From Amoebophrya sp. A120 (taxonomy: Eukaryota > Protista > Dinoflagellata), in contig CAJINV010000040.1 in NCBI GenBank assembly GCA_905178155.1, positions 4,970-33,492 on the forward strand: a DNA stretch of 28,523 nucleotides. Direction: 5' to 3'. A program made the position numbers and the translations under genes. Positions 4,154 to 24,653 of the stretch are shown in pieces. The notes beneath the pieces were generated by a model. It was not told the DNA's origin. It searched no databases and saw only the letters and a list, made by a program, of their open reading frames with translations. Each line of letters begins with the position of its first letter. Within the stretch, counting starts at the first letter, position 1.

Positions 4154-7100
4154 TCACCACCAAGCATCATCCACTCTTTTCAGGTCGCTTCCTCTCCCGC
4201 GTCTTTGGCCCACAAAGCGTCCCAATTTTTCACGACGGTTTTGTATTCAGTACAAATATGTCTGGGTCTGGGAACTTGTGGAGCTGGATCGCAATGATTG
4301 AGCGTGCGTTCAAGTGCAGCCAAGCATGATAAATTTTTGACACGCCTTGTCATTCGCAGCGACATGAGAGCCTGCCTTTTTTGCATGAAGTAGAAAGAAG
4401 TCGTGCGTTACAGTTTTGACAGACCGCAACCGCATGCAGCGCAAGCAATACAGGTTCCACTTTTCCAGGCCCCTATTTGCAGTGCATATTTTGTATGCCG
4501 CTCTGATATTTTGAACCACGACCTCGCTGCTGCCCCGTAATTCCGAACAGCATCCTCTTGCAAACACTTTTTTCGACAATCAGACACCGCTGTAGTTCTG
4601 CATCAGAATGAGTATGATCTGAATAGATTATCTAGGAAGTTTATTTCCATTTGGGTACTTTACATCTTCCCAAAACCACGACTTTGATTATGCTGTAACC
4701 CATACTTACCTACAACAGCGGGATCGCGATAGTACCTACTAAATTCACTTGTTAGGTATGTAGTACTCCTCCTCCTGCTGCCTTCAGTTGCATGAACGGG
4801 TGGCGCTCAACAACATTTCTAGCATCTTTCCTTTTGTATGAAGGGTTGCAAAAAACCGACACGAGCGCTACTGTGCAGTAGCACTTTCAGGTCTAACGCC
4901 ACTCGCCCTCCGCTAATGGTGAGTCATGCAAGTTATGAAGCCGGCAAGAATCTATCACAGGCACCAAGAACTACTTTGGTCGTATGTAGATGTTGGCATT
5001 TGCAAGACGATAGCTTCCAATATGGATCGACGTCGACGATCCTTCGCCAGATCTTGATGTTCCACGATGGTGCCCAATTATGCCAGCAAAATCCAAAATT
5101 TTGAGTAAAGCCAAGTTTCTCCTCGCGACCGCACGCTAGATCGAGAGATGACACATTGGCGTGTGTATGCGAATACGACATGCGAGCGCCACAAATGAAA
5201 TGCTGCACGTGTTTCTACATCTCGAGCTTATCATGTACGACTAGTAGGCTAGCATGAAAGCCTCAAGGTTTTAGCATGACACTGCAACTGACGGCTCTAC
5301 TGCTAGGTCTGACTCAGCATGATACAATTTTGCTGAGATAACTGCTCGTGAGATCTTCTTGGAAGTGGAACAACGCTTTCGTGGTCCGCAGCAAGCGCAT
5401 GTTGAGAGAGCTGCAGATGGCGCTGGCGCCGCGTCCCCGCATCTTCGGCTGCTTGCCGCCCGCTCCACCCTCTTCCGCTGCTTTGTTCTCCTCGTCGCGG
5501 TTAGAAGCGTCTAGCTTCAAATCCATGGGAGGGCATGACCTCTTCTTGGGTTGGGACGTGGATTTACCGCGCTCTTCAATCTCCACCTTTTCTTCCCACC
5601 GACCCGGCACTGACCCCCGCGCTATGGTCCACTTTGAGCCGTCATATGGAATGCAAAAATGTCTGGATCTGGAAAGAACATGCCCACTTGTGAGGCGATC
5701 TGTTGTGCTCGCGGATTATGTTGAGGGGGCATTTCTCATGCACAGCAGAATTTGTCCTGCTGTGTGTACATTCCAAACCATTTTGGAGATGCACCAACAG
5801 CAAGACAATATATCGGTTTTCTTGCCGAGCCAGACATGCTATTTGCATTTGATACGTCACGCGCTAGTACCACGGAGTCTCCCTTGAAGAAAATTCCACA
5901 TTTCTTGTCGCCAATCAGGTCAAGCGCCGCGTTATATGAGATGTAAATATGTCTGGAGCTGGAGAGATTCTGAAGTTTGTCATGCAGCTTTTGCAGGCCC
6001 AGGCCTCACAAAGTCTTGAATGACGGGCCTGTAGGCATCACAGGTTATGCACAACCTTTAGAATTCTTCTCCTTCATGAGAATGAGAAATCTCTACTTAG
6101 CATGAAAAAAACAACTTATCCAAGACAGATTTTTGGGAGACTGGCGGGACGCAACACAAGCTCAACTTTACCAGACGCAGACATACTTGCAGTGGATACG
6201 TGAATTGCCTCGACAACGCCGGACTCCAGCAGTCGCTTCGCTGCACGGGTTATGCATTGCAAATGTGTCTGGGTCTGGAGACAAGCAAACTTGTGATGCG
6301 CATTGGAGTTCATACGAAAATCTGTCATGCTTGCATGCTTGAACAGGAGGAGCCTTGCGTTTCTTGTTGCCGAAAGAGGACATTTAGTGCCACGGACTAG
6401 GCATTGGCAGGCCTTGTGAAAACGTGTGTGATGCTAGCGCTTGCATGCCAGACCTCAAGGGTCAAGTAAAAACAGCATCGCAAACATTTGCACTCTTCCA
6501 GACCTCGACATACTTGCATTTGATACGAGTACCCTCGACCTTCTCCTCCAAAATCTTTTGGGGGCGCTTCGCTGCGCCGGCCATGATTTTTTCGATCTTG
6601 TCGGCGCCCAAAGACGCCGGCAAGAGAATCCCGTACTGCCAGCTGTTGTTCGGCGCTTCGCGGAACCGTCGCAGCTGCACTGATTTGCCCGGAGGCAGCT
6701 TCTCGAGGATTTTCTGGTAGATGTCCGCGAAGAAAGGCAGGAACGAGCCACAGAGCAAAGTCGCGGTCAGCTGCCTTCGGGTTCCGATCGTGTTGTTAAA
6801 ATTTTTCGAAGATGACCAATAGATCCTTTCTCTATTGTATGAAAAAGTACCGCTCTCGTAGTAACTGCGATCAATTTTTCCATGCGAAACCTGTGAAATC
6901 TGTGCCTTCCTACGTTATTGATCATGACAAATTCCAGTCGTCAACATTTTGCTCCTGAGAAATAGATCTATATTATCACTTACTATCAGTGCGGTACTTT
7001 TGCAATGCATATTCTTCCTGGTCCGCCTCCGACAACTCCTTCAGGTCAGATTTTCGGTCCTCGAACAAAGCCGGCTAATATCCTGTGCAAAAGCCTCGCA

Positions 7101-10100
7101 TTCGCAGTCGCACGAATTGCAGTCATGCATCACAAATCCAGCCCTATACCTCATCCAGCATGAGAAAGTGCGCTTGATTTCCTCTCGGGAAGGTTTCTAC
7201 AAATGCAATTGGTACCTGTAGTGCGAAACTTTTGCAATTCATACCGGCAGGAGCGCGCTGGAGGAAGATGACGACGCAGACGACCGCGGCAAGGTCATTT
7301 CCTCCTCCTCGACATCAACAGCGACAAAGTAGCTATGCGGCGCCACCTGGGGCACCCGAAGCAAACGCTCGAACCGGACCACTCGCCTCTTTCCAGCGAC
7401 CGGCGGTTGGGGGCGGTCACAGCGCTCCACAAGCTCGCCTCTACTTGTCTGCGCGAGCGCTGGCAATTTGAGGTCTTTGATGTCATGACTACCGGAACCA
7501 CCCTTGTGCTCGCTGTTGTGCCCTCCAAAATTGTCGTTGCCCTTCTGATGTCCCAGCACCTCCAGAAATCGGTCGAACAGCTTTTCTTGTTCCTCTTTGG
7601 GGTACAGCGGCAAGCAGTTCAAAAACTGCGTCACCCTAGTTCCGCACGCCTCATGCGCCTTCCTATTGTACTTCGGCTCGCACTGTTCTGCTAGATCGCG
7701 CCACTGAGGACGAGCGCCGAATTCCAGTACAAGCTGCTTGACCGCGTCGTCTGCTTTTCCATGCGAGAAGTGGCTCCCGTCGAGCAGCGCGTCCAGGGCG
7801 GCATTTCCATGCTCAGCTCGCCCCCGAGTGAAGGCGCCCAGCAGTTTGATGCGCCGCGCCAGGGCGCACACAAACCGAGCTTCCACCGCAGAAAAACTGG
7901 ACGTGATCAGCGTGTACGCAGGCAGGTGCGCCTGGCCCGACCTGTGCACTCGGCCGATTTGCTGCGTGAACTCCATGGAAGACCAGGGAAGCTCCAGAAT
8001 AATCATGTGCCGTGCCCGCGAGTCAGCTTTGTGGGCGTGCAGCGACACGCCCGTCGATCCAGCAGCGGTAATAATGGCCACCCGCTTTTGCCCCGCTTGA
8101 AACGCTTCGATCTCCTTTAGACTCGCATTCGCTGGCCGGCTGGCGCTTTCGTAGCGTGAGAATTTATCACCGGAAGCTTCGCCCTCGGTCTTCAAGAGGA
8201 GCCTCCGCTTCCGGCCCGAGATCTCCGCGACCTTTTCCGGTCCCCCAAGCGAGTTCAGGATGTGGTCAAGCGCGTTCTCGGGCAGCTTCAAGCCCTTCCA
8301 CCGAGCGATGAGTTCGTCGCGTTTTCTCCTGCTGGTTGCGGAAAGCAGTCGGCGTTGTTCTGGGCCGGCCTCGTTTGCGTCGAACGAGTCAAAGCAGTAG
8401 ATTGTCAGAAAGTTGACCGCGATGCTTTCACACAACGAAAAGGGAGCGCTGCAGGATTGGTCAACGTCGTCGGCATTGCCTCCGGGCACGTCATCGCCGG
8501 CGTCGTCGCCATCCGTGTCGTCTCGGTCCGTCATCGCGGCCTCTCCTGTCGACTGCAATGCGAGGACGACCTGCTTGCCCTCCGCCAGCAGCCTTCGTGC
8601 GAGTCCCAGCGCAGCGGGAAGCTTGTCGCAGGCCGCAAACTGCTTCCAGAACTTCTGCCGCGCCGCGGTGAATATGCCTCGGAAATTCGCGACACCGCCG
8701 CTTCGGCTAGGGTTTGCCGCCTCCGCGGCTTTCAGGTACTCTGGGCCGTGGTTTTCCAAAAGCCCGTGGAAGAATGTACTGGTGTCGTGAAAAAGCGCCA
8801 CGACTTTGTCATGCAACGTGGCGTCAAGCAGCCCGTTGCCCTCGCCGGCCGTGGCAACGTGGAGGTCGCCGCCGCACCCGATGTCGAACTGTACGCCTTC
8901 GAGGCTGAGACGCCGACTTACTGCGGCACCGGAAGTGCGCAACTGCCAGCCGAGTGCGGCCATCCCTCCCAAGGGACTCGCATCCCGCATGGCGAAGGTT
9001 CTGCGGAGGTGGTCAAAACCGACTTTCTCCCATGCGCCGAGACGGGCCATGCACGTATGCATTGCAAAACAAAGCATGATCGCACTAGTGCTAGTTACTC
9101 TTACTGGTAGCAGAAGAATTGAGTTTGCCAAGTTCATGCAACATTCAAATCAGCATGAGTGCGACGCTCATACTTTTGCGCAGAATAATAAGCAAGTTCC
9201 GACAACTCCGCCGCTGCTGTGGCACTGACGTAGAGGACTCTGGCTTCCTTGAGCAAGCTCATTTGCATCTCTACGACTGCAACGCCGCAGCTTTCACTAG
9301 CTTTTTTACAAATGTCGCCGTTAGGGAGGTACTTGACGCGAAGCTGGTTCTTCGCAGCGTGGCACTCGTCGAACGCCAGCACTCCGCTGCCGAAATACTT
9401 CTTTTGTCCCGCGTTCGTGGGGACTGCGTCTTCGCCCTTCTCCGCGGCAGGTGGCTCGTTGAACCATGTGGCGAGGAGCTTCCTGTTGTCGTCGTTCGCC
9501 AACCACCTGTACGAACAGAAGACAACGCCGTCGCCGGCATCTCCGCTGCTTTGCTGTGTGGCGAACGTCCTGGTGTCCAGCAGCTGCATTTCACGCGGGA
9601 CCTGCATGTCTGCGAAGTCTCGCTGCGCATCCTTCAGCAGCTCTTTCTTCTTGCTACACCAAATACTTCGTCGGTTGCCGCTGTTCCAGTGGTGTAGCAT
9701 AACGCCGGTAACCATTCTTCCCTTGCCGCATCCTGTCCCTTCCCCGAGAAGGAAACCCTTCGGGTAGGGGTAGCCGCCCTTGTCCAGCATCGGGTCGGCA
9801 GCCGTTGCAGGTTTAGGGTTCGAATGGCCAGCGTTTGTTGCCAGCAGCTGGGAATCTTTCGTCTGCTCGGAGATCGCGAACTTTTCGTCTGTTCGGAGCA
9901 CAGCGAGCGTAATGGTTTCCAACTGCGTCGAGGAGATGAGCTTCTGTTCGAGATAGGTCACCGGAATTCGAATTTCCAGATCCTTCGGTATCGCGACTTT
10001 GCCAGCTCTTGTCTCCGCAATCGCGGACGGGTGCGCGGCACAGCGGAGCGCTAAATTAAACCCGTACCGCGCAACCACGTCGCCTTCGGTGTCGCTTTTG

Positions 10101-11159
10101 CGGTACGCCTCTTCTGCCGCTTCGTAGTCTGCCTTCTGCGCTGGCGTCTCGAGCATGTGGTTCCGGCGGCCGGGGAAGATCCAGTTTTTTCCTGCGAGAT
10201 GCTCCTGCTCATCGTTAGCCTGAAGGTCATGCGACGAGGATTCCTGCTTTGCAGTGTTGACGTCGGGACCCAGCTTCGGCGACCTGTCGCCGATGTCCAC
10301 TCTCCTCTTTTTGGTTTTGCTTGAAATAGGAGGATTTGCTGAAGCTTGATCTACTTGGTCGTCGGTGTTCGTTTTTCGCGGGCTGATGTGCACGGGCGAA
10401 CTTGTCGATGATAATGAGCCTTGGTTCCCTCGTCTCGTGGTGTCATTCATCAGCACCTGTAGTGAATCTTAGAGTTAGGTTGCAGAAGAGCAGTTCCGTC
10501 ATCGTCATTGAAATGTAGAGCATCAAAAGCGTCTCGAACGAAAATTCAAATATTTGATACCACGAGGTAGTCAAAAAGCATATAATTTTTCAATAAAAGT
10601 GGACCAAGATAGGCGTGCTTCGAAAAAAGTGCGAATCTCGGAAGTTAGATACTTACGACACAACCCACTGATGTACCTGGTGTAGCCCTCGTTGGTTGTC
10701 TGTTTCTTGCAACGTTAGCCGACTCCGGGTCTCCGTATGGATGGCCGTCTGCCAGACTGCTTTTCGCTTTGCGCGCGGTACTGGAATCAACGGCGAGGCG
10801 TCTTCTTCATCACGAGCTGCTGAACTCTTAGCGGCTTCAGTTTCTGTGCCAGCTGCAGGCCAGTCCCAGTCTTCTCCACCCGAGGAAGACGAGCAGGCCG
10901 GTCCTATCACGCCCCTGGCGCGCTTCAGAAATTGCGGCGAGGTTGCCGCTGCCGCCTTTGCGGTGTTTAGTCTCCGCTTCTTGTTGCTCCGACGTCCAAG
11001 CGACCCAGCAGCGGAGAAGGTCGACGCCCGCCTTGTATCTGGTCGTAGAGAGCGAGCGGAGGGAGAGGTTTGTTGATTTCCCGACCCACTGCTTGCTTCT
11101 GCTGCGGTGGCGGTAGAGCGCTTGGATCGCTCCTTAGCATAAGCAAACTCGTGGTTCAT
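4154..11159 (-). CDS. SBNO: Strawberry notch (SBNO) family SF2 helicase-like protein, multi-exon, ~1550 aa in the full model
   Basis: Motifs: QLETI, GFLLGEGTGCGKGR (Walker A), FDECHAAKN, VLYVSAT, LAY|MARLGAW, SRRLSLEGVQF, LALQSTGEA, LPENALDHILNSLGGPEKVAEISGR, AGSTGVSLHA, LELPWS, QQIGRVHRSGQ, plus a C-terminal GTRRQLTATLLCGSFL...VQLRRF...YGILLP block. Exon model (boundaries may shift a few nt): 10677-11159 (tentative), 9188-10456, 7245-9050, 7012-7074, 6526-6827, 6199-6245, 5855-5929, 5341-5639, then tentative 5013-5073, 4767-4831, 4489-4589, 4154-4238. Total 4656 nt, open throughout. The core 6526-10456 is well supported; both ends are less certain. Confidence 0.88.
4244..4488. mobile_element. 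Introner-like inverted-repeat element, family A
   Basis: Ends read inward TATTCAGTACAAATATGTCTGG and TATGCACTGCAAATAGGGGCCTGG. Perfect 5-nt direct repeat TTTTG at 4239-4243 and 4489-4493. Confidence 0.75.
4837..5012. mobile_element. Degenerate introner-like element
   Basis: Ends TATGAAGGGTTGCAAAAAACCGACA and TATCGTCTTGCAAATGCCAACA, with irregular spacing. Removing element plus 5 nt joins DPYWK-R-KDARNVVERHPFMQLK in frame. Confidence 0.4.
5079..5340. mobile_element. Introner-like inverted-repeat element
   Basis: Ends TATGCCAGCAAAAT and TATCTCAGCAAAAT. Removing element plus 5 nt joins ORF 5314-5610 to the frame of ORF 4933-5208. Confidence 0.6.
5645..5854. mobile_element. Introner-like inverted-repeat element, family A
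   Basis: Ends TATGGAATGCAAAAATGTCTGG and TATCAAATGCAAATAGCATGTCTGG. Perfect direct repeat CGTCA at 5640-5644 and 5855-5859. Removal gives VVLARD-GSKWTIARGSVPGRW in frame. Confidence 0.85.
5935..6198. mobile_element. Introner-like inverted-repeat element, family A
   Basis: Ends TATGAGATGTAAATATGTCTGGAGCTGG and TATCCACTGCAAGTATGTCTGCGTCTGG. Direct repeats CGTTA/CGTGA. Removal gives VEAIH-AALDLIGDKK in frame. Confidence 0.8.
6251..6525. mobile_element. Introner-like inverted-repeat element, family A
   Basis: Ends TATGCATTGCAAATGTGTCTGGGTCTGG and TATCAAATGCAAGTATGTCGAGGTCTGG. Direct repeats CGGGT/CGAGT. Removal gives KVEGTR-AAKRLLESG in frame. Confidence 0.85.
6833..7011. mobile_element. Introner-like inverted-repeat element, family B
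   Basis: Ends TATTGTATGAAAAAGTACCGCTCT and TATGCATTGCAAAAGTACCGCACT. Direct repeats TTCTC/TTCTT. Removal gives ADQEE-RIYWSSS, in frame with ORF 6462-6758. Confidence 0.8.
7079..7243. mobile_element. Introner-like inverted-repeat element, family B; also readable as GT-AG intron 7075-7244
   Basis: Ends TATCCTGTGCAAAAGCCTCGCATT and TATGAATTGCAAAAGTTTCGCACT. Removing 170 nt gives SALLP-PALFEDRKSDLKE in frame. Confidence 0.75.
9056..9187. mobile_element. Introner-like inverted-repeat element, family B; non-canonical intron ~9051-9187
   Basis: Ends TATGCATTGCAAAACAAAGCATGATCGCACT and TATTCTGCGCAAAAGTATGAGCGTCGCACT. Removing element plus 5 nt (137 nt) restores the SBNO motif ELAY-MARLGAW between the 440-aa and 632-aa ORFs. 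Confidence 0.85.
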
Positions 11160-12384
11160 GTTGCGCGAGAACGAGGCCTGTGATTCGAGAAGAAATTTTT
11201 TCTTCTAATACGAGCAGCTCAATGGCAATTGTGCTCAGCTTGAAACTGTCCCTGACTGAACGCGAAGGAAATTACACTCCTTTTTTGTGATATCGATTTG
11301 TCTATTCTCCCTCCTTTTGATGGGCAAAGCGCGGAGTTGTGGAGCCCAAGTGGATGAGGCGAGGGGCGGCCAAATCTAACGAAAAACCACGTTCGCGAGG
11401 AAAGATACAAATGCGAAGGTAAAGATTCAAGCGCCTGGTCCACCTGGGGCAAAAAAGGGAGCCAATCGAAAGCCAGAGTTGACATTATCAGACTCGAAGC
11501 AGGGCACTCTCTCCCACCTCATCAGACATTGTCGCTCTAATTCTTTCTGCGTACGAGGCGTTCAACACGCAATTGCGCTTTGAAAAAAGAGCATCGCTCT
11601 GTTCCTTTCAAATTTGACACAAGGCGAAAAAACTGACGAAACGACATCGAGGGCAACGTTAGAAACCAGAGAGAAGCACGGCCAGGGTCTTTTGCCGGGC
11701 TGTTTTAGCGATCAGGAATTTGAACCTAAAAAAAAAACGATATCGCAAACTTTGTCTCCCTCGATTTCAACTAGCGCAGTGCCAGCGCTATTGTGCAAAT
11801 CGGTAGTGGTAACTCGGGTCGGGCTGTCGTGATATCCCTTGAAGCTCAATTCTTCTCTCACTTCGAACAGGAGATATACAGGTTCGGGCCCCCTCTGGCG
11901 GGACTGCTAATTCAAGTTGTCACGGAGACTCCTGTACTTCCAGCTGATAGTTCACGCAAAGTTTTTCGTTCGAGTTCTAGTTTCCACCTAGATAATGAGT
12001 GGGTTCTCTAAGATTGCCACAGATGCTGGCTGTGACAGTACAACAAGCAGGAAAAAAGCCCTTCCTGGGTATTCAAAGTCGCCACACTGGTCAGACTTTT
12101 GTCCGCTGTCTGTGAGAGAAGCTGTTACTCGCAGACGTAAACAAAATCAAAAGCAGTTTGCTTCACATAACATTTGCAGAAGTTCTGCGGAGAGGGTCAT
12201 CAGTGAAAGAGCTCTCAGTAAATCAAGCGCGTTCCTCATCAATTGGGAGTAGTCGCTATTTCACGCGAACAATAAACGAGTGAAGCACAGCGTACACGTA
12301 GTTTTCTGGAACCAGTTCGGCTATTTTGACTGATAACGCAAGAGCTCTTCTATGATCCACTAATCTTCCTCCCGCTCCCAACTC

Positions 12385-13500
12385 CTACATTTCGACGTCT
12401 TCCTCCGCCGCCTCGTCTTCCAAAAAGAACAGGTCCGCGCGGACGCAATCAACGTCCGGGTGCTTCTGGAGGTACCGACAGATTTTGCCTGCGAGGTCCG
12501 AGATTTCATTATGCAGGTTGATCCCTTTATTACGCAGCCCAGCCGCGTACCCGGGAATCACCGCTTCGCGGACGACCTGGACCATGGCCTTTCACTATCC
12601 TGAGCAAGAACGTCCCCACCCCAAAGTTGTCATGCAAATTGCGTTGGCAAGCTGTGAACAGGATAAGGACATGGATTTGTAATGCGGCTGCCACAGCGAC
12701 GGCTTCACTGCACTACCATCCAAAGCGGAATCTGTCACGTATGACTTCCAAAATTTGTGGATTTGCAGCGCAGACTGCTCATCTTGACGCTAGAGAGAAA
12801 ACGCTCTTGCAAATGATAGCCATGCGCCTTTTCTCACCTCGTCCTTGCCCGCGATTACTGTGCGGTCGACGTCGAGACGGACCGTCTTACAGGCATCCAT
12901 GCCGACTATGTCGGCCTTCTTGGTTGCGAACGTTTCCCACGTCGGGCCGGAGTCACCGGGTTCCTCCTGGTCGTTTTCCGCGGCGACGCCGCTTGCTGCT
13001 TCTGCGGGAGAAGCGGGTCGCACGTGGTGTTCACGAAAATCAATGACGAGATAGCTGATGCGCGGGTCACGTTTCAAGGCGTCCGTGGCGCGGGAGGCGA
13101 GGGCCTCCACCGCGGCCCACTCCTCCGGCTCCTTGAAAGCACCAAACTTCTCGCGGACCTGCTGCAGGACCTTGTAAAAGTCCACCGTGCGACGCCCCCG
13201 TTTGTCGGTTTTCTTCAGATCGCTGACGGGTCCTATAACGCAGCGCCTACGGGCAGCGGCCAGCCTTTTGCGCTTGCGAATCTCTTCCCTCCGCTCTTCT
13301 TTTTCGTCTAGATCCGCAAGGGTGTCGTAGATGTGATCGACAATATCTGCAGAGCACGAACTCGCCGGCGACGGCGGCGCGGAGGAACAGGATGGAGTTA
13401 CTCCACCGACACGGCGGAGCAGCCGGTCGGTACTGGTAGAGCGATCAAGGTCGCTAGAAAGATCCAGGTCAGAGTCGGTAGAAAATGAGTCACCCGCCAT
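12385..13500 (-). CDS. Hypothetical protein, 2 exons (12819-13500, 12385-12590), ~295 aa
   Basis: The 236-aa and 66-aa ORFs join in frame (VRKGAW-Q-AMVQVVREAV) when the element below is removed. Ser/Asp-rich N-terminus and a basic NLS-like RKRKR. No family recognised. Confidence 0.7.
12596..12818. mobile_element. Introner-like inverted-repeat element
   Basis: Ends TATCCTGAGCAAGAACGT and TATCATTTGCAAGAGCGT. Element plus 5 nt is 228 nt; its removal deletes the stop at 12790 and keeps frame. Confidence 0.75.
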
Positions 13501-13700
13501 GAGTGTGGACTGATGTAGTCTCTCCGGGGTGAATTTATTTAGACTATTTGAAAAAATTCAGCTTCTTGCGATTTCGCAATGGCTTTTGGAACGAAGTCAG
13601 TTTGCTGTTTTTGGTGCCGATGGATTGCGAAGAGCACGAGTTCGCGGTGTTTTTTGCTACCCGCAGAGAAATCGATGCGAATCGCTCGCGGATCAAGTAC

Positions 13701-14708: not shown

Positions 14709-14738
14709 TTTGTTCCAATGTATGGATTGCACCAGTTG

Positions 14739-14752: not shown

Positions 14753-15098
14753 CTGTTAATTCCGAACCTAGTGCAGCAATTTCGGGTTTTAGTGCTGAAG
14801 CAATTTGGCGGACCCACAAATCACAACGATTTTTGGCAGCAAAATTTGGTGCGAGTGCTCGCTCCTCTCAAATTCTGTCGAGAGCTGATGTTCCGAAATA
14901 TGGTTGAAAGACTCTGTAGCAGCGCGGCTGAGAGTATGCAGCTGCGATGTCGCACGTGCAGTGACGCAGATTTATTGCACTCTATTCAATGGATCGCGCC
15001 GCCAACCGTGGTCATTTTCACCAAGCTTGTTCCACATTTAGCTGTTTCTTGCAATGTTGCCTTTGGAGAGGCATCTCAACTTGCTACATGAAGTACGC

Positions 15099-15908
15099 CT
15101 ACATCCAGTACGCTCCGCAACGATGCTCCCACAGTGCGAGCATCTTGGCGTTGAAGCCAGTGAAATTTTGCACGTCGGTACACGGTCCAGCATAAGATGG
15201 AGAGGGTTTGCACTTATGTATTCCCGCTGGAGCAAATCCGACGGGGCATGTAGCCGAGTAGGAACGGACGCCCGAAGCACATGGCCAGGAAAATCCACAC
15301 TGTTCCTCTGCACGCATTTTTGCTTCGAGGTTCATTGCTTGAAACGAATAGGGTCCTTTGCTGCAGCTTCCTCTGTAGGTGCTGGCCATGCAGGTTCCGT
15401 TTTGCGCCACTGAGAAGCCTATTGGACAGCTTCTGTAGTCCTTGGGACAGCTCCTTATCAAACCGCTCGGCGTAGCTAAGTGTGGCCTTGGTGTGTGCGA
15501 CATCCCGATCATCATTTCCCGAAACCCGGACACTTCGCTATTCTGTGGCTCTGGCCCGGAAGGAATAGCCGAGAGGGATGAAAATAGTCCGTCCGCAGAA
15601 GAGGCTCTCCGCAAAAAACTGGTTTCATGCCATGTCGAGCGCGGACTTGTGCCCTGGCTGTAGCTTTGTTTCACCAGGATGCTTCTGCCAGAATGTACGG
15701 TGCCAGCATCCGTATGCGCTTCCCGAAGTTCAGCAGGGAATGGCGGGAACGTCCGTGATGGAATCAATTTAGAGAACAATCCGCTTTGCTGCGTTGGCGC
15801 TGCTGTGATTGGCGTAGTTGCGAGGCGGATGGCTGGCAAACGCACGGCTGCAACGGCTGTGATCCCCGGGAGTACGAGGTGCGGCAAGGTAGCGAGTCTG
15901 TGAGCCAT
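15099..15908 (-). CDS. Secreted CPW-WPC domain protein (2 domains), 269 aa
   Basis: Hydrophobic N-terminus; TSFLRR. Domains CPKDYRSCPIGF...YRGSC...KMRAEEQCGFSWPC and RSYSATCPVGF...YAGPC...WEHRCGAYW. Confidence 0.9.
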   Translation of the reverse strand: MAHRLATLPHLVLPGITAVAAVRLPAIRLATTPITAAPTQQSGLFSKLIPSRTFPPFPAELREAHTDAGTVHSGRSILVKQSYSQGTSPRSTWHETSFLRRASSADGLFSSLSAIPSGPEPQNSEVSGFREMMIGMSHTPRPHLATPSGLIRSCPKDYRSCPIGFSVAQNGTCMASTYRGSCSKGPYSFQAMNLEAKMRAEEQCGFSWPCASGVRSYSATCPVGFAPAGIHKCKPSPSYAGPCTDVQNFTGFNAKMLALWEHRCGAYWM

Positions 15909-16267
15909 TGTGATGTGCGTCGACTTGGCAGAAGAGCACTTTAATTAAACTCAAAAAAAAAACTACAACGGGAGATTGTTCTAGGATTTTTTGAGTGATC
16001 CGCACAGCTTTTATGGCAAAGGCCGATGTCTTTTCCGGTACCTTTCAGGTGGCACGCAGCACTGTCATAGGATTTTCATTTCAATCACGGCAATTTGCGT
16101 TTTCACTGACCAAATGCTTTATGACAACGATTGCAGAACAGCTGAGTTGAGAAAACGTTAGCACCTGTAGGCGATTTCCGCGCATTGTGGTCAAACCAGA
16201 AGAGCCACGCGTTTTTTATCAAAAACAAAAATCGTTTGAGGGATCAAAAGCTAGGGCATCTTGAAGC

Positions 16268-16735
16268 TTACGCACACGGAAAGGTGGCTCCACACTTCCA
16301 AGCAAAGTCTGTTTTCTGTGCGTTGGTCATACCAGAAAACGACCGCGGGCCGCAGTACCCTGTATAGGATGCCGTCGGGTAGCAGGTTCCATCAGACAAA
16401 GTGAAGCCGATGGGGCATCCAGACATATCCATGGGACAGCCACCAGCGTAAAGCTGTTTCCGCACCGCCACGTGCGCAGCAACATACGCGTCCTTCTTCA
16501 GGCTTTCCAACGCTAGAGCTGACGAAACCTCTTCTGTCAGGGCGGCCGTTCCGGCCGCGATGGCAGCAGCTTCATTGACCGACGCGTTGCCGATGGACTG
16601 CTTGTATGCCGAACTGGAGCTGCCGGCCGACATAATGCTAGCTAGACTACTGGCTGCAGCTGCAGCAGAGCCCGGGAAAATTGGATCAGCCGACGCGATA
16701 GCGGCCACCGCCGAGAGAACAGCAAGACCCAACAT
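16268..16735 (-). CDS. Secreted CPW-WPC domain protein (1 domain), ~155 aa; paralogue of 14061-14708
   Basis: Signal MLGLAVLSAVAAIASA. ADPIFPGSAA...SSSAYKQS.G.AS.NEA.AIAAGTA is shared with the paralogue; ends KTDFAWKCGATFPCA. Confidence 0.9.
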   Translation of the reverse strand: MLGLAVLSAVAAIASADPIFPGSAAAAASSLASIMSAGSSSSAYKQSIGNASVNEAAAIAAGTAALTEEVSSALALESLKKDAYVAAHVAVRKQLYAGGCPMDMSGCPIGFTLSDGTCYPTASYTGYCGPRSFSGMTNAQKTDFAWKCGATFPCA

Positions 16736-17148
16736 ATTTTTTTGGCGCAATCAAAAAAAACAAAACCAACTAAGTGACTTGATATGAGTGAAGTATAATT
16801 GCGCAATAGGCCATACGTGTGTAAAATACCAAGTTTGATTGCAGACGGCATTGGCTTTGTGCTATGCGTTCTGATGTCTTACTTGCCATCCCTCCAAGAC
16901 ACACGAGCGCGACCCCTATGTCGTCGACAAGCGAAGGCATGCAGTGCAGCAGTGGACAAGTAGTCGACACCGAGATTTGCCACGAAATACTTCTGAACAG
17001 AACTGGAGGAAGGACTTTTTCATGTGCACTGACAAGAAGTGGCTTTTCATGCCTGCATACTGTGGCTCGCAATTCTTTATCAGCGTTCTTTGCAATACTC
17101 CAATCTCAAAGGGCGAGAACAAAGACTTTACGACCCGGCATTGGTTCC

Positions 17149-17484
17149 TCAGGCGTGCAGGTGCAGCTGCACGATTGGCGACTGCGTTTTGCGCTCTGGC
17201 AGGTAGCCCCCCGACGCTCCCATGATACGCGAGACCAAACCACGCAAGAGGGCTCCTTTGCGGGCTTGCAAGAAGGAGCTTGATTGACCGGTCGTGTAGT
17301 CTACTACGGATCCTCCTGCTGCCGCAGCGGAAGCGGCCCCATTAGAGGACGCGGCCGCCTGATATGCTAGTCCTGCGGACCTGTACGCCTTGGCGGCTGC
17401 GGAAATGTCAGAAAGATCGCTCTCACGCTGAGCCGAGACAAAAACTCCCATCAGGGCGCTCAGCACGACGGCAAGGCGAAACAT
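17149..17484 (-). CDS. Small secreted Ala-rich protein, ~111 aa
   Basis: Signal MFRLAVVLSALMGVFVSA; SSFLQA; ends in beta-strand-like SPIVQLHLHA. Confidence 0.8.
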   Translation of the reverse strand: MFRLAVVLSALMGVFVSAQRESDLSDISAAAKAYRSAGLAYQAAASSNGAASAAAAGGSVVDYTTGQSSSFLQARKGALLRGLVSRIMGASGGYLPERKTQSPIVQLHLHA

Positions 17485-17795
17485 TTTATTTTTGAAAAAG
17501 CTGGGAGAAAAAAATAACTGGAGCTGTAGTGGCTTGGGTGGAAACACATACTACTTTAGTGGCAGCCTGCGTATTTTTCTGGTAGTTCTTGAAAAAGTTG
17601 AAACCGCCACGACGTCACTCCGAGCAAAAGATAGCTGCTGGCACGTCTCTCACCACCACACATTCCGCTCAACAGCACGCAGTCGAGAACGAACAGACAG
17701 AGTCACCAGCCTGTAGACGCACTAGATAACGGGGCTTCGCATTACTTTCTATATGGCGAGAATCTTCGAATCAAAACAAGGTCCATTTTAATATT

Positions 17796-18416
17796 TTAAC
17801 CCAAGGCCGAGGCGATCATACCATTTAACGCCTTGACAAATTGGATCTGCATGTCCATGATCTTGCCTTGCATGGCCACCTCTGAGGCGTCGCGGGAGGA
17901 CTCAGTGGCCTGCAAAAGATCCACGGTGGATGCCCACGGAATGTCAGACGCCTTGACTTTGACGCCGATGGAGCCGGACCCTTTTTGGAGGAAGCTGGCA
18001 TGGAGCGCACTCTTCAACTCCCCGATCACGATTTTGGCCAAGGCGCCAAACTCTGCAGTGGCCTGTGCAATGGTCTTCGATTCCAAATCTGCGCGAACAT
18101 TTTCAAAAGCAGCAACACGGCCAGCAGACGCTCCTGATTCCGGGGCGTTCATCACGCGAATGAAAACTGGCGCGCCTTGGAGAAACGAAGAATGATGCAC
18201 AACAGCGTCAATCTCCGCTTTAGCAGATGCCAGCGCTGCAGTCATGGCTTTCTGGATTCCATTCATCCCGGATGCTTCCATAGCAGACTCTGCCTTTCCG
18301 TAGGACGCGAAGCCGCTCCCGGCATCCACCGGAGGCGCTAAGGCTACCTGGATAAGCGGCTCACTGTCAGCAGCAACGCTGCCAATCAAGCACGCTGTGA
18401 GAATTTTCCCATACAT
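17796..18416 (-). CDS. Secreted protein with three strand+helix modules; resembles apicomplexan blood-stage antigen 41-3-like proteins, 206 aa
   Basis: Signal MYGKILTACLIGSVAA; EPLIQVALAPP...SSFLQ...EFGALAKIVIGEL...ASFLQ...VDLLQATESSRDASE. The family resemblance is from memory and unverified. Confidence 0.85.
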   Translation of the reverse strand: MYGKILTACLIGSVAADSEPLIQVALAPPVDAGSGFASYGKAESAMEASGMNGIQKAMTAALASAKAEIDAVVHHSSFLQGAPVFIRVMNAPESGASAGRVAAFENVRADLESKTIAQATAEFGALAKIVIGELKSALHASFLQKGSGSIGVKVKASDIPWASTVDLLQATESSRDASEVAMQGKIMDMQIQFVKALNGMIASALG

Positions 18417-18690
18417 TTTCCTGAACTGTGAGAGCAGAAAAAAAATCTACTGAGAGGAAGATGTTTATGTCTGTAAAATGCATAAAATGCACGTGTGCAA
18501 GATTTTGTAAGCTACAGTTGATTGCTCTAGTTGCAGGTTTGTTTGAACGAGTCTTGGTCTCTCAGTAGTGAACAGAACACGAAGTGGTCGCGGGACTCAT
18601 TGCTGGCTGGATCAGAAATACTTTGGACTCAAGCAGATGCGACTCAACAACATTTAACAAACACTAGCACATTCTCAACAGGTCGATGTC

Positions 18691-19347
18691 CTAGTGCGAG
18701 AGCGCTGCGGCACCGATGGCATTCAAAGCCTTCACCAGCTGCATTTCCTTTGCAAGGATCGTGGTTCTGAGCCTTGTTTCACCCGAGTCGCGACGAGCCT
18801 CCATGTCACCCAACAAGGCCGACACAGTCTTGTACGATGGGTCTGCGCCGACGCGCACGTTGATTTCGCGGGAAAAGCGCAAAAAACTTTTGCGTCCGCG
18901 TAATTGCTTGTCAAACTCCGCGATCACAACTTTGGCAACCTCTGAAAATTCCTGCTTGGCTGACGAGACCAGAGCACCCATTGCCGCAGAGCGTTTGCCC
19001 TCTAACGCCTTGACCCCGGCAACACCCGCGGACTCATCTGAGGTGGCGCCTTCAATACGAACGGAAATGACCGGCTCCGCAATGTTCGCAAAAGACGCAC
19101 GGCCCATGGCTTTGGAAATGGTGTTCCCGAGCGTTGCCGAGGCTTGGGCCAGGGTCGACTTGTACGCGGCGTCGATTTCAGCCAGGGCTGCGTGTTCAGC
19201 TGCGAGGCGGCTTGACTCTGCGGCAGCAATAGCACTTGACACCGCTGGATAAGGGGCGGAAGGGGATGCTAAACTCAATTCCACCACCGGCTTGCCAGCG
19301 CGGACCAGCACGGCACAGGCACTGAGCGTCGATAGCAGCTTTGCCAT
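18691..19347 (-). CDS. Secreted paralogue of 17796-18416, ~218 aa
   Basis: Signal MAKLLSTLSACAVLVRA. KPVVELSLASP, EFSEVAKVVIAEF, KSFLR, LLGDMEARRDSGE and MQLVKALN are collinear with the neighbour. Confidence 0.85.
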   Translation of the reverse strand: MAKLLSTLSACAVLVRAGKPVVELSLASPSAPYPAVSSAIAAAESSRLAAEHAALAEIDAAYKSTLAQASATLGNTISKAMGRASFANIAEPVISVRIEGATSDESAGVAGVKALEGKRSAAMGALVSSAKQEFSEVAKVVIAEFDKQLRGRKSFLRFSREINVRVGADPSYKTVSALLGDMEARRDSGETRLRTTILAKEMQLVKALNAIGAAALSH

Positions 19348-19648
19348 ACTTGATTTTGGGAAAGACAAGTAGATACTGATACACAAAAAAACAGAATCCT
19401 GCGTGAGGCAGAAGGACAGACGGGTTGATGGTACGGGAAATCCACGTTGCCTTTTGCGAGAATCTCCGAAATCATGCGCCAATGCGCAGGGGGGAAGATC
19501 TCTCACCACGCTCAGACACGAAACACAAACACGAAACGCCGACGCGATCCAAATCTGGGCGGAGCCAAAGCTTTTTCAATTTTTGCTTTTCAATGGAGGA
19601 AATCAAATTCTGAAGAACTACAGTCCGAGTCAGGTCATTCTCAATCCC

Positions 19649-19933
19649 CTAGCCCAAAAGGTCACGCGCGGTTGCCTCATTCATTTTTTCCATGCTGATC
19701 ATGGACTGCAGTGCGCTGTTGGCATGAGCCCGGCGCCGAGCTAAGAGTGCCAAGGTTGCTGCCTCAGATCGGCGCATCTCAGCAGAGCGCCGCGCCGCGA
19801 TTGCATCTGGAATGGCGCTTTCCAACGCAACGTTGATCACTTCAACAGGTCCAGCAGAGCCGTGGGTAAGAATGTCCTTGTATCCGAAGGCGCACCCGAT
19901 CAGGGCAAAGAACAAGGCCGCAACGCGCATCAT
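19649..19933 (-). CDS. Small secreted protein, ~94 aa, single strand+helix module
   Basis: Signal MMRVAALFFALIGCAFG; PVEVINVALES followed by an Ala/Arg-rich helix. Confidence 0.8.
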   Translation of the reverse strand: MMRVAALFFALIGCAFGYKDILTHGSAGPVEVINVALESAIPDAIAARRSAEMRRSEAATLALLARRRAHANSALQSMISMEKMNEATARDLLG

Positions 19934-20240
19934 TTGTTGTAGCTTTCCCGTTTGCAAAAAAATCCTGAAGATTCACTTCAGTCACAATAACGAGAGCAAC
20001 ATGACTCCAATCAAAATATGCGTTTTGGGTAGGCGACGAGCGATCTCTCCCGCTTGTCACTTGCTTTTTGTCCAGTCCGTTAGCGAGGAAGAAGCGACTC
20101 AGAGCAGAACAGAGAGCAGAAAAGGCCTGCAAGGCTCAGTAAAAGCGAAGTTTTTGAAGGAAATATTCACTTGAATGCGAGACATCCACTGCTATTCTCT
20201 TGAAATGCCACCCGGGATGCTGTCACGGGATTGTGAGTTC

Positions 20241-21374
20241 TTATGCACTAGGCACCTTGGCGGAGCCAGATCCAAAGTACGGCGAGTTGACAATGGAGTC
20301 CGAGCCCGTGCTGTAAATGTCAAATCCAGATGCCGTATTTTCCAAAGCCGCGAGGGAGGCCGGCGCGACCGGGCACTCTGCGGGGACGGAAGTCGATTCT
20401 TCAAAGCTGCTGTACTGCGGCGGCAGGTTGTCACTCCGCAAATACAGAGCCATGGTGCACATTGGCGGGGCAGAGACGGTGCTGCAGGTGTCAGCAATGT
20501 CTGTGATCCAAAAACCTGGGCACGCGACCAAAGTGGCGATGCAGCTTGTGAAGCAGAGTGGCAGGCGACCGACCGGAGTTGGCTCGTTGCGGGCCATTGG
20601 AGTGGAGCACCGCGGAAAAATGGCGCCGCATTGCATAGACATGTAGGTCTTGAAGCACAGAGAATACGCCGCGCTACCCGTTTTGCCAACACGGTCCTTG
20701 TACAATGCCGGAAACGAAGCAATGGTGCCATCCAACTGGGCATCAGTCACGTCAGCAGTGACAAAGTCGGCAGCAGTGATTGGGTACAACACGGAGCCGA
20801 CACAGTTGTGGCCAGTAACCATTGGCATGCAGGGAAGCGGTTGGTTCATCCACACGGGGGGCGGCACCATTGGGGGAACTATCTGCAGCACGGTGGACAT
20901 TGCAGCCTGAATCAGGCCAGCACCGGTGGCAAGACCATTCATAGCGAGCATCTGAGGCATACCGCCTGCAGCTCCCGCGGCTCCAGATTTGCTTGCTAAC
21001 TCTGCGACCATCTTGCTGACGTCAAATCCGAAGAGACGCGACACTACCCCTCCCGGGAAAGCTGAAACTCCCTTGACAGCCACCGCAGCTGGGGCGATCC
21101 CATAGTCGCAGTGCGGGGTAGACGAGCCGGTTTTGTAGTCCTGCAAAAAGGAGACAGCGGTGTCCAACATGTTCAGGTGCGTTTGGTAAGAATTCACATC
21201 AAACTCCTTGGCCATTTTGTCATAGACCTGCAAAAACGCCTGCTCCATTTCTGGAGACTGCTCTTTGAACAAGGCGATATACGCATCAGACCCGTGCAAG
21301 TTTTTGTCTGCCATCTCTTGGCTGGTCATCAGTGCGGACGCACCGATAACGCAGAGAGACGCGACCCGCAACAT
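20241..21374 (-). CDS. Secreted Cys-rich protein with Frizzled-CRD-like domain, ~377 aa
   Basis: Signal MLRVASLCVIGASA; AFLQ and SFLQ. PPPVWMNQPLPCMPMVTGHNC...CFKTYMSMQCGAIFPRC...RLPLCFTSCIATLVAC has FZ-type cysteine spacing. Confidence 0.88.
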   Translation of the reverse strand: MLRVASLCVIGASALMTSQEMADKNLHGSDAYIALFKEQSPEMEQAFLQVYDKMAKEFDVNSYQTHLNMLDTAVSFLQDYKTGSSTPHCDYGIAPAAVAVKGVSAFPGGVVSRLFGFDVSKMVAELASKSGAAGAAGGMPQMLAMNGLATGAGLIQAAMSTVLQIVPPMVPPPVWMNQPLPCMPMVTGHNCVGSVLYPITAADFVTADVTDAQLDGTIASFPALYKDRVGKTGSAAYSLCFKTYMSMQCGAIFPRCSTPMARNEPTPVGRLPLCFTSCIATLVACPGFWITDIADTCSTVSAPPMCTMALYLRSDNLPPQYSSFEESTSVPAECPVAPASLAALENTASGFDIYSTGSDSIVNSPYFGSGSAKVPSA

Positions 21375-21684
21375 GATTTGATTCTTTGTAACAAAGAAAA
21401 AAGTAGCTAAATGCGCGTTAAATGAAGAGGTAGGTTCATGACCGCTAGGAAATGCAATTGTATACATATACACAAGCCGACGAAGAAATTTGCTTCGCTC
21501 ATTGTCTCTCCACACGAATCCGCGGTTGTGCAACGAAGAACATCATGAAATGTAGAAAAAAACAAATATCACGCAAGAAAGCGGGAAGACCTAGAACGCG
21601 AGAGAGCGGTGCTTGAGCTGTTTACTTAATTGAAAACAAACGCAAAGGCCTTGGACGCGTTTTTGGAAGTCCTGATTAAGTGAG

Positions 21685-22235
21685 TTACGCACACGGGAAC
21701 TCTGCGCCAACACTCTCCGCAACGGCTTGTTTTTCAATAGCCGCCAAACCAGAAAAGGAGACACTGCTTCCAGACGCGGAGACGCAGGCATCACCCGACG
21801 GGGCCCATCCCGAAGGACAACCAGCGTAGTTGCGGGCACAGGTCACCGCCGAAAAACTTACACCTTCTGCAACAGCAGCCGCCTGGAGTGCGTCGGATAG
21901 GGTAGCCTTGATCATCATGGCCGATTCACTGGGGTGGGCCGCCTTCAAAGAAGATTCTAGACCTGAAGTGAAGAAGTAAATTTTGACTGTAAGAGTTTTG
22001 CACGGTTAATAAAGTCATCATATGTAGTCTGAAAGTTATAAACACCTCTAAGCAGTTGGAATCTTGTACCTGCCAGCGCTGGAGCGCGCAAAAACGACGC
22101 ACGATCAGCGATAACGTTCACCACGAGAACGTCGCCTTTGTTCACATCAGTGAAGATTTCTTTAGGCAGGTCGAATGGGACAGTTGCCAAGCAGGATGCG
22201 ATCCCGCAGGCGAATGCCACGACGAACGACTTCAT
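21685..22235 (-). CDS. Secreted protein with degenerate C-terminal CPW-WPC domain; 2 exons (22070-22235, 21685-21962), 147 aa
   Basis: GT-AG intron 21963-22069 (G|GTACAA...TTCACTTCAG|GT) joins ASFLRAPALAG to LESSLKAAH in frame. Domain CARNYAGCPSGW...C...EKQAVAESVGAEFPCA. Confidence 0.85.
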
Positions 22236-22548
22236 TGTGTGGGCTAGTTGTATTTGAAAGAAACGCAGCTACAGCTTTGGTAATTGCAGATGCAATGGTG
22301 ATGATGCTCGAGTTGCGTCCTCACGGTTGTACAAGCACGCCAGTTTGCTGCCGCTTTTGTTTTTGTTCATCTACACTCACCAAACAATGTGAACACACGA
22401 CTCATTGGTTTTGCAGAAAAAGAGAGCGAGTGAGCTCCGGACGTAAGCGCATTCACAGGGAATTTGATTGTATTCAGTTCAGACATGTCTGAATTGCTGT
22501 GCCTTTCCCGAGAGTCCTGCGCCCGCGAGACAAGACTGAGGAAGCGGT

Positions 22549-23343
22549 TTAGTGGTAGAGCGAACCCGCCAGGGAGTCCGCCGCCATAGCTCCAGCCTTC
22601 AACTGTGCGATCTCCTCTTCAGCCCCATAAACACGACTTGGCGACGGCAGCACGATGTTTGTGTGGCCATAGGCGCCGGTTGCAGAGTCACTAGACTGGA
22701 ACGAGACCGGCATGTTGGTCAGGAACGTGATCAAAGAACCGGCCATGTCCCTGGTGGCATCTGGGGTACTTTCCTTCTGTGCGAGATTTTTGACTTTGAA
22801 CAGGAGGGGCTGCATGGCAACGCGAGCATTGGGCAGAGAAGCAAGATCCAACAATCCTGCGACACCATGCTGTGCAGAATAGCCACCAGCGTCAACGAGC
22901 GACCCGTAGTAGCTGACTGCATCTTTGAAAACAGATCCATCTGCACCCTCACGCTGGAGATCGGATAGCGGCGTGCGCAGAAAGGATTTGTGTGCCGCGC
23001 GTTCTAACATCTGCACTTCCTGTTGCTCGACGCCAGCCAGTGCAGTTGCAGCGGCAGCACGATCAGCTGCGAGCGACGCAGACGCGGTCTCACCTACGTG
23101 CAAGTTCAACACGGGACGCTGCAAGAAGCTGTACTTTTTAGCCGCAGCGCTCATCACTGCCTCCACGCCGGCGTTGCGCAGCACTGGTTGGGCCAGCGCA
23201 GGCGCAATTTTTTGCTGAAAATCCGCGGAATTCGAGCTGATTCCAGCAGAGAGCGCCTCACCCAATTGTTCACCGACCGCGAAAGACGGCATAGCCGCCT
23301 CAGCAACGGCAGCGAAAGTGCAGGCGACGAAAAGTTTTGACAT
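22549..23343 (-). CDS. Secreted protein with two SFL motifs and a helical (ARM-like?) C-terminal region, ~264 aa
   Basis: Signal MSKLFVACTFAAVAEA; YSFLQRPVLNLHVGE; KSFLRT; C-terminal AGSLITFLTNMPV...GAYGHTNIVLPSPSRVY. Confidence 0.85.
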   Translation of the reverse strand: MSKLFVACTFAAVAEAAMPSFAVGEQLGEALSAGISSNSADFQQKIAPALAQPVLRNAGVEAVMSAAAKKYSFLQRPVLNLHVGETASASLAADRAAAATALAGVEQQEVQMLERAAHKSFLRTPLSDLQREGADGSVFKDAVSYYGSLVDAGGYSAQHGVAGLLDLASLPNARVAMQPLLFKVKNLAQKESTPDATRDMAGSLITFLTNMPVSFQSSDSATGAYGHTNIVLPSPSRVYGAEEEIAQLKAGAMAADSLAGSLYH

Positions 23344-23647
23344 CTTCCTGGCGATGATTCCACGAAAAAAAACACGACGCCAAGGACTTGTGCTACGGCA
23401 AGTCAAGCAACATTTCTCTTTGATTTCTCTTTGATTACGCGGGCTGATTCTGTCTCTTTGATTACGAGTATTGCATTTTTTGGGTGGCCGCTCGTTGTCA
23501 CGACACATGAGCACGAATTTAGGAACACATATGAACGTGAGACGCTGGAAAATACATTGTGGAAAATGGGAATCAAAAAACTATCAGGATTTCATCAGTG
23601 TATTGTCGCGTCCGATTTTTTGACACGTCACCGGTTTGGCATCCTGC

Positions 23648-24653
23648 CTATGGCGGGCTGGCCACTAACGGGCTGCCAATAACCTTGCATTTGCTGGTGA
23701 CGGCCTGTTTTGTGTAAAGGGAAGGAAATCATGGGAAAGCCTCCTGATCCGGCGCGACGCAATTAATCACAAAAGAAAAGCTACACGGATCCCCCCGTAC
23801 TAGTCTATAGAAAAAATAGCTGAATAGTGTACCTTTGTGGCCTCCCAAACCGAATCATTGATGCCCCAGACCTTTCCCATCAACGAGTGGACCGGTCCGC
23901 AAAACGGAGCGAATCTGAGCAAGCACGTGCTGGCGGTGTAAACGTCGATGCAGGCACACAGAATTTTGGTCGCAACACCCAATACATGGATTGGGAGGTT
24001 GATGGCTTGGTAGATGGCCAGGGTCGCGACACGACCGAAGTTGCAGCGGTTGCCCAGTGCCTCCACCAGCTTGCAGGACTTGGCGTCAAGGTATGCCAAA
24101 CAAAAATACCATTTCTGTCCGATTCTCAAACCGCATGTAAGCTCTAACTAAGCTCTCCGTCACTCCGTGAATACACCTGAGTTTCAGTACTGAATGCAAG
24201 AATTACATTGTTGTCTGGGCATTTTGGTAGTTTTGTTTATGATAAAAAGCAGGGCGCGTCCATCATTGGAACAGCAGACGACAAGGTGCTGCGCTCTTTC
24301 AAAAAGGCGCTGTGGGTTGCCTGGAACTCAGCTAGCGCCGTGGTCGGGTCCTCATGCTCCACAGCGGCTTGGAATTCCTTCATTTTGTTGAAAGTGTCAG
24401 CGGTTTGTTCCTGAAGTGCAGACAGGACCGTTTTGCCATCCTTCTGTGCAGTCGACATCACGGAATCCCAGTACTTCACGCATTCCGCACCACAGTCCTT
24501 GCTCAACACCTCGCGGACCTCATTCAGCTTATCCAGCGGCACCTCAGTGTGCTGTGCAGGGAGGGACAGCAGACGGTTCCCCGCGGTGATCCGCTGCGAC
24601 ATGGACAGAGCGCTGGCGCCCGCCACAACCGTCAAGGATACAGCAACTTTCAT
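23648..24653 (-). CDS. Secreted Cys-rich protein, 3 exons (24245-24653, 23833-24086, 23648-23704), ~239 aa
   Basis: Signal MKVAVSLTVVAGASA. The introner-like intron ~24087-24244 and GT-AG intron 23705-23832 give DAPCF(Y/D)AKSCKLVEALGNRCNFGR...LCAC...CLLRFAPFC...WEATK-AVTSKCKVIGSP. Confidence 0.78.
24092..24244. mobile_element. Introner-like inverted-repeat element
   Basis: Ends TATGCCAAACAAAAATACCA and TATCATAAACAAAACTACCA. Removing element plus 5 nt joins ORF 24237-24653 to the frame of ORF 23800-24129. Confidence 0.82.

Follow-up and report, generated by a model that had tools for sequence, protein, structure and literature searches.

How can introns that mostly lack the usual terminal dinucleotides be cut out of a transcript exactly? 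The question is raised by a 28,523-nt stretch of DNA from Amoebophrya sp. A120 (contig CAJINV010000040.1, positions 4,970 to 33,492, forward strand; hereafter the window, with positions counted from its first letter), in which three genes, all on the minus strand, carry eleven introner elements, nine of them in a strawberry-notch (SBNO) helicase gene. An earlier note on this DNA had claimed that each element reads TAT-N7-AA(A/G) inward from both ends, that it is removed together with exactly five further nucleotides, and that it is a non-autonomous DNA transposon with a 5-bp target-site duplication (TSD). Here we report that the intron appears to start 1 nt before the 5' TAT and to end 4 nt after the 3' ATA, a placement of the cuts that we call the 1+4 register. 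The window elements are members of the introner class published for A120; the earlier note rightly said that introners are known in Amoebophrya and understated the precedent, since TAT-N7-AAA itself is in Farhat 2021 (PMC7789003). Set against that class, a duplication of uniformly 5 bp, the 1+4 register and the independence of orientation make a useful and testable refinement.

Ten of the eleven elements carry the motif exactly at both ends, and the irregular one that the note had mentioned is 4551-5012, with TAT-N8-AAA at one end and CAT-N8-AAA at the other. Lone motifs are modestly enriched, by less than twofold (22 left and 26 right motifs against 13.8 and 13.1 in shuffles). Motif pairs with at least 7/12 complementarity outside the motif number 11 of 27, against a mean of 0.12 and a maximum of 2 in 300 shuffles, so paired motifs with added complementarity are far above chance. 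These 11 pairs comprise six true elements and five cross-pairs between related neighbours, and four true elements score below the threshold. An element's own arms did better than permuted arms (87/154, p=1.5e-4). A motif-relaxed scan of the window, which itself missed several known elements, gave no further convincing element and one weak intergenic pair, 11645-12025.

The flanks of the elements are 0.56 identical on average at a repeat length of 5 and 0.23-0.30 identical at lengths 2-4 and 6-8, so that 5 is the only length between 2 and 8 that rises above background. A direct repeat of at least 4/5 is present at five of the eleven sites (permutation p=1e-4), as the note had counted. Between 5640 and 6530, three neighbouring elements share one end-family and have related 5-mers ending near CG (CGTCA, CGTTA/CGTGA, CGGGT/CGAGT); because of this kinship, cross-pairing between neighbours scores equal to own pairing, which could permit exon skipping.

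Excision and the position of the cuts

One line of evidence comes from X4 and X5, the contigs of two runs from one sample, which are presumed to be RNA (hence "RNA-like") and were aligned to 3900-13700, a region covering ten of the eleven elements. At seven of these ten sites the contigs skip a segment (250, 467, 215, 269, 280, 184 and 170 nt), and each segment equals the element plus five. The note had proposed a splice-motif-agnostic alignment of transcripts as a check, and in these contigs its rule for the length held at every one of the seven joints. Six of the seven skipped introns are not GT-AG, and the same contigs also skip the canonical intron 10457-10676 (220 nt) of the SBNO gene. 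Elements 5079, 9056 and 12596 showed no joint among the X4 and X5 contigs aligned to this region. Three further joints lie inside element arms (5674/6171, 6279/6487 and 6280/6490; shorter side 22-31 letters) and are taken for other copies of the repeat. None of the datasets listed as containing this stretch is recorded as RNA, and two raw RNA runs, X8 and X9, aligned 0 reads, which is uninformative.

Proteins gave the second line of evidence. When the nine SBNO elements are removed at +5, a frame of 1506 residues results that is identical to protein P0001 at 1454/1506 positions with 0 gaps; P0001 is an annotated protein named Amoebophrya sp. A120, thus annotation and not raw data, and 97% identical. 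For element 24092-24244, protein P0060 matches 199/200 residues without a gap, and distant homologues keep the Cys spacing. Near-identical gapless proteins therefore back the removal of element plus five at ten of the eleven sites. At the eleventh, 12596-12818, the evidence is the frame and the inverted repeat; the interior of this element is about 70% like one family of the related loci described below, and an inner, unused TAT-N7-AAA at 12740 was rejected as the partner of 12818 as it gives stops.

The introner introns of the window are listed here, all on the minus strand, with their coordinates under the 1+4 register and the flanking duplication as matches of 5.

4240..4489, minus: introner intron, element 4244-4488, duplication 5/5, ends AT..AA under 1+4 with the cut ambiguous; 250-nt joint in X4 and X5, gapless to P0001
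4547..5013, minus: introner intron, element 4551-5012 (irregular, N8), duplication 0/5, ends CT..GT; unambiguous joint 4546/5014, 467 nt, in X4 and X5; P0001 fits only 1+4
5075..5341, minus: introner intron, element 5079-5340, duplication 1/5, ends TT..TG; gapless to P0001 with 1 or 2 nt upstream, no contig joint
5641..5855, minus: introner intron, element 5645-5854, duplication 5/5, ends GT..AC; 215-nt joint in X5, P0001
5931..6199, minus: introner intron, element 5935-6198, duplication 4/5, ends GT..AC; 269-nt joint in X4, 0-3 nt upstream
6247..6526, minus: introner intron, element 6251-6525, duplication 4/5, ends GT..CC; 280-nt joint in X4 (2 contigs) and X5, at most 2 nt upstream
6829..7012, minus: introner intron, element 6833-7011, duplication 4/5, ends AT..GA; 184-nt joint in X4 and X5
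7075..7244, minus: introner intron, element 7079-7243, duplication 1/5, the sole GT..AG; joint 7074/7245, 170 nt, 1 or 2 nt upstream, 4 or 5 giving a stop
9052..9188, minus: introner intron, element 9056-9187, within the AAA_34 domain, duplication 2/5, ends TT..TG; the Pfam AAA_34 match breaks at model 234/233, P0001 allows 0 or 1 nt upstream, no joint
12592..12819, minus: introner intron (predicted), element 12596-12818, duplication 2/5, ends CT..GA; frame and inverted repeat, no joint, no homologue
24088..24245, minus: introner intron, element 24092-24244, duplication 3/5, ends TT..TT; P0060 199/200 gapless for 1-3 nt upstream only

After removal the frames are open at all eleven sites in the three genes, as the note had said; that observation by itself does not single out 5. 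The open frame was rejected as proof, as it fixes the length modulo 3 and allows +2, +5, +8 and +11, so that "exactly 5" needed the outside evidence given above. The note's further statement that most of the introns lack GT-AG also proved correct, for ten of the eleven.

Where the five extra bases are taken from can be read from the same evidence. We define the register, in transcript sense, as the number of nucleotides removed ahead of the 5' TAT; perfect duplications leave the cut unplaceable, while decayed ones fix it, and elements 4244 and 5645, with perfect duplications, thus carry no register information. At 4551 the joint, free of ambiguity and seen in two runs, allows only 1, and the P0001 residues agree. 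The other joints allow 1 or 2 at 7079, at most 2 at 6251, 0-3 at 5935 and 0-4 at 6833; P0001 allows 1 or 2 at 5079 and 0 or 1 at 9056; P0060 allows 1-3 at 24092; and at 12596 the value is at most 1, as taking 2 or more upstream leads to a stop. The value 1 alone is compatible with all eleven sites, giving introns of the form N-TAT...ATA-NNNN. Were the registers independent, a shared value would arise with a chance of 0.05 for the seven RNA sites and 0.008 for nine sites. The mirror arrangement, 4+1, is excluded at eight of the eleven sites, and registers 0 and 5, flush with an element end, as well as 4, are each excluded by several sites. The geometric ruler claimed in the note is thus sharpened to 1+4 by joints, P0001, stops and P0060. 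Since 4551 and 7079, whose repeats match at 0/5 and 1/5, are both excised, the duplication is not the splicing signal and is dispensable.

From its residue 286 onward, P0001 shows 97% identity, and its 285-residue N-terminus was not found in the window by tblastn, implying a second copy or a different strain as its source. X4/X5 contain both P0001-type and window-type letters.

Related copies and transposon features

A motif made from four window ends retrieved at least 187 stretches from one assembly of a metagenome collection, 80 of them with full flanks; young copies of one family, and good inverted repeats, are over-represented in this set. The stretches hold 221 distinct elements of 109-514 nt. 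Their flanking repeats are a perfect 5-mer in 176, a 4/5 match in 33, a perfect 4-mer in 1 and a perfect 6-mer in none, and no target consensus was seen across the 221. The 3-5 nt direct repeat described for A120 introners is thus found here, at 4/5 or better, in 5/11 window elements and in 209/221 of the related loci. Several families with different interiors are present among the locus elements, three of the eleven window interiors join locus families, and X4/X5 include element-derived contigs with other flanks. Terminal inverted repeats (TIRs), a duplication of fixed length and the lack of coding capacity are features both of these elements and of MITEs (short transposable elements bounded by inverted repeats), and the elements are likely non-autonomous DNA transposons, as the note had proposed. 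Its suggestion to look for an autonomous transposase with the same ends yielded none in 19 open reading frames (ORFs) at long or unpaired element ends (about 0.3 Mb of flanks), and the motif pattern had 0 matches in viral contigs. One 834-nt element (locus L037, 632-1465) bears the same ends and is flanked by a perfect duplication of 5 bp, and its size is near that of published family 38; its five ORFs gave no Pfam match.

The excised length was also scored at these copies. Removal at +5 gave the best coding score at 141 of 217 held-out sites, with a strand caller that made 87 confident calls in 133 test windows, 84 of them correct. This held-out score replaced a plain open-frame control that was nearly blind (116/163 for +5 against 104-112/163 for +3, +4, +6 and +7). 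In the largest family, of 152 members, orientation relative to the coding strand was 44:56 among 100 orientable copies. The window copies 4244 and 6251, each of them excised, belong to this family in opposite orientations; that of 4244 was assigned from a single 55-bit match. Codon phases 0/1/2 were 79/35/32 with a self-trained model and 39/24/23 with a window-only model, and 7/11 introns in the window are in phase 0. The phase-0 excess may reflect target composition; it was discarded as a register test because 1+4 and 4+1 differ by one codon and cannot be separated by it.

Possible mechanism and competing explanations

We lean, with moderate confidence, towards a reading in which transposon elements are removed at element plus five in a single 1+4 register, a relaxed spliceosome reading the N-TAT donor and a predicted end-to-end stem positioning the acceptor. 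A putative transposase would insert the element at no fixed target and duplicate 5 bp, the duplication being seen in the 221 copies. In the pre-mRNA the arms are predicted to pair inward from about arm position 8, leaving 8 nt of the 5' arm and 11 nt of the 3' arm mostly unpaired. From the upstream duplicate the cut would then take the final base, and from the downstream duplicate the initial four; a fresh insertion would thereby restore the ancestral exon exactly, whatever the 5-mer. For this step the length is shown, and the register is supported at sites with decayed duplications. As TAT reads inward at both ends, either orientation would present the same signals, and both orientations are seen. 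Catalysis would fall to a U2/U5/U6 core working without U1, accepting any +1 base and tolerating non-AG ends, which we consider somewhat probable.

Three points favour this choice of machinery: the TAT offset resembles that of donors, T stands at +2 in the top motifs of both strains, and the core is present with U1 undetected. The 1+4 offset puts TAT at intron positions +2 to +4, and this N-TAT placement matches the GTA(C/T) donors of the window, where the canonical-looking donors are GTACA (three) and GTATA (one; of the four, one was identified by a joint, one via protein P0059 and two from sequence). Published data for A120 include U2/U4/U5/U6 and 83 of 89 spliceosomal proteins, with U1 undetected. 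Table S4 of Farhat (PMC7789003) has T at +2 in 9/9 top A120 motifs, and 9/9 top A25 motifs begin TT, the A25 repeats beginning TTA; as a register test the table is consistent and not diagnostic, because placement within a perfect duplication is arbitrary. For the stem, arm complementarity is low at positions 4, 5 and 7 (0.48, 0.57 and 0.30) and mostly 0.75-1.0 from position 8 onward, a pattern due in part to selection. In the folding models 9/11 window introns form an in-register stem and 4/11 a terminal TAT/ATA pair, and on these models a hairpin may guide the splicing. The GT/GC..AG ends of U2-type introns occur in 1/11 window introns and in 4/146 of the oriented loci.

Several observations weigh against this reading. 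For 4244 and 9056 the folding gives no stable stem in register, and a branch-like YTRAY motif, present in 2/11 window 3' regions, is absent from the last 70 nt of the other nine introns. The 146 oriented copies (of 209 scored) start with GT in 41, AT in 44, TT in 32 and CT in 29; 15 end in AG, and GT-AG occurs in 4 in sense and 3 in antisense, so there is no +1 or AG preference. A codon-usage test on 33 imperfect duplications did not single out a register, 0 scoring best and 1 next, lower by 1.0 log unit. In a published A120 family of 9716 introns, T at +2 (69%) and A at -2 (68%) are balanced as a mixture of 1+4 and 4+1 would give, a symmetry that could also stem from aligner tie-breaking inside perfect duplications. 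Finally, 15 of 17 non-synonymous variants equal P0001 (40 variant rows examined of 65), so the X4/X5 contigs come partly from another copy or strain.

Among other explanations, the strongest, which we nevertheless consider unlikely, is a separate non-spliceosomal machinery with the same 1+4 geometry, whose cuts lie a set distance away from the paired ends, as proposed for euglenids. It would account for the missing +1 G, AG and branch-like signals, for the independence of orientation and for the undetected U1, and it has a parallel in Euglena, where spacers (3 nt before CAG, 5-6 nt after CTG) were needed in a knock-in and non-spliceosomal factors were suggested (PMC12501133). However, the offset places TA at +2/+3 as in the canonical donors of the window, and does so again in A25 with a different repeat; the core of the spliceosome is present in A120, and in tunicates the removal of transposon introns that have non-canonical ends is ascribed to the spliceosome (PMC11282704).

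We give a poor chance to the idea that the total of +5 is fixed and the register varies (1+4, 4+1 or anywhere in the duplication), the window showing one register by accident. According to the Fig. 3 legend of Farhat (PMC7789003) the position of the splice sites varies with respect to the hairpin, the dinucleotide table in print shows symmetry, and 4+1 is compatible with 3/11 sites; but 4+1 is excluded at the other eight, two of which have in-frame stops as evidence, independent of RNA or annotation. Least credible of all is that the joined forms are DNA without elements (either precise somatic excision or empty alleles of another strain or of a paralogue): such an allele would likewise differ by element plus five, X4/X5 are presumed RNA and some contigs carry P0001-type letters, but the canonical GT-AG intron is skipped too while intergenic 11421-12074 is uncovered, the joint 6244/6525 stands in two X4 contigs with variant letters in part of the depth only, decayed duplications imply insertions older than the 97% identical copy, and retained elements would break a conserved 1506-codon frame.

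The spliceosomal reading with one register can be set beside the known systems. Farhat 2021 (PMC7789003) describes A120 repeats as TAT, seven looser bases and then As, with 3-5 nt direct repeats (a 5-bp duplication is the example in the Fig. S19 legend), a mean length of about 240 nt, non-canonical ends, a MITE-like nature and no transposase; repeat length and splice position are given as variable, with "no clear splicing signature". More than 60% of A120 introns are non-canonical and are described without a signature and with variable borders. The window shares the TAT-N7-AAA repeats, the direct repeats and the non-canonical ends; in contrast to the variable repeats and borders of that account, it shows a uniform 5-bp duplication and one register that fits all sites. 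Gozashti 2025 (PMC12130899) classes A120 families mostly as "TIR DNA, unknown" and family 38 (about 810 bp) as "Ginger, 5-bp TSD, TA/TA termini" with Copia/Gypsy homology; in its 58 rows the automated duplication calls range from 2 to 11, the splice mechanism varies by family, and the rows give no common register.

The nonconventional introns of euglenids (Nomura 2025, PMC12501133) resemble those of the window in their transposon-like paired ends, a short 5' and a longer 3' spacer, and the lack of a terminal dinucleotide rule. They differ in using CAG/CTG with spacers of 3 and 5-6 nt, established experimentally in an unrelated lineage, whereas ours are TAT/ATA with 1 and 4, computed. A CAG at +4 to +6 pairing with CTG at -8 to -6 is absent here, where the ends are N-TAT and ATA-N4; the window introns work like the euglenid type and are not members of it. 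The introners of Micromonas, Fritillaria and Polarella are also inverted-repeat transposons whose duplication is split by splicing (review, PMC11282704); they use or co-opt GY..AG, AG-AC/AT or GC-AG, whereas the window has no fixed dinucleotide beyond T at +2. A fixed register was not met in our literature search, outside which lie Roy 2023, Henriet 2019, Farhat figures S19-S25 and files 13-14 of PMC12130899, and it is not stated in the excerpts of PMC12005148, PMC13326754 and PMC12621601.

Whether tens of thousands of A120 introns obey the code 5'-N|TAT...stem...ATA|NNNN-3', with a U1-less spliceosome, a U+2 A+3 donor and neither AG nor branch site, seems to us evenly balanced. If there is one such code, an insertion in either orientation at any exonic 5-mer would be spliced out without a scar. 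A fixed 1+4 register, if true, would explain how transposons colonise exons harmlessly, would allow exact re-annotation of the genome and direct tests of the splicing machinery, and would represent convergence with the Euglena spacer code.

Host genes and surroundings

The host genes and the canonical intron are as follows.

4180..11159, minus: gene for the SBNO helicase, 1506 codons counted from the first Met adopted here, the true start perhaps further upstream; Pfam AAA_34 and Helicase_C_4, P0001
10457..10676, minus: canonical GT-AG intron of the SBNO gene, GTACA donor, CTAAC 22 nt before the end; 220-nt joint in X5
12385..13500, minus: gene 2, predicted 295-amino-acid protein of unknown family, predicted frame; word-index homologue search and Pfam without match
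23803..24653, minus: gene 3, signal-peptide-like Cys-rich protein, running on beyond a probable canonical intron near 23830; relatives at E<=0.001 number 95

Word-index homologue searches gave no match for gene 3 either. P0059 departs from the genomic frame at the GTACA site of gene 3, near 23830.

Gene 3 lies in a region, 14061-27672, of about 15 co-oriented, mostly intron-free genes on the minus strand with signal-peptide-like N-termini. Five of them match CPW_WPC, four reaching or clearly passing the Pfam cut-off and one standing at 23 bits. These 14 kb hold one introner, whereas 5 kb of the SBNO gene hold nine. Between 15099 and 27672, 15 S-F-L-[QKERS] motifs occur in 2594 residues of 12 ORFs, and they occur also in the gene-3 homologues; we take them to resemble the maturation sites of apicomplexan secretory proteins. 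SFLQ did not occur in the papers listed by one literature search. At the other end of the window, 317-2366 holds tandem duplications, now degenerate, with lengths of about 0.5 and 1.06 kb and 79-91% likeness.

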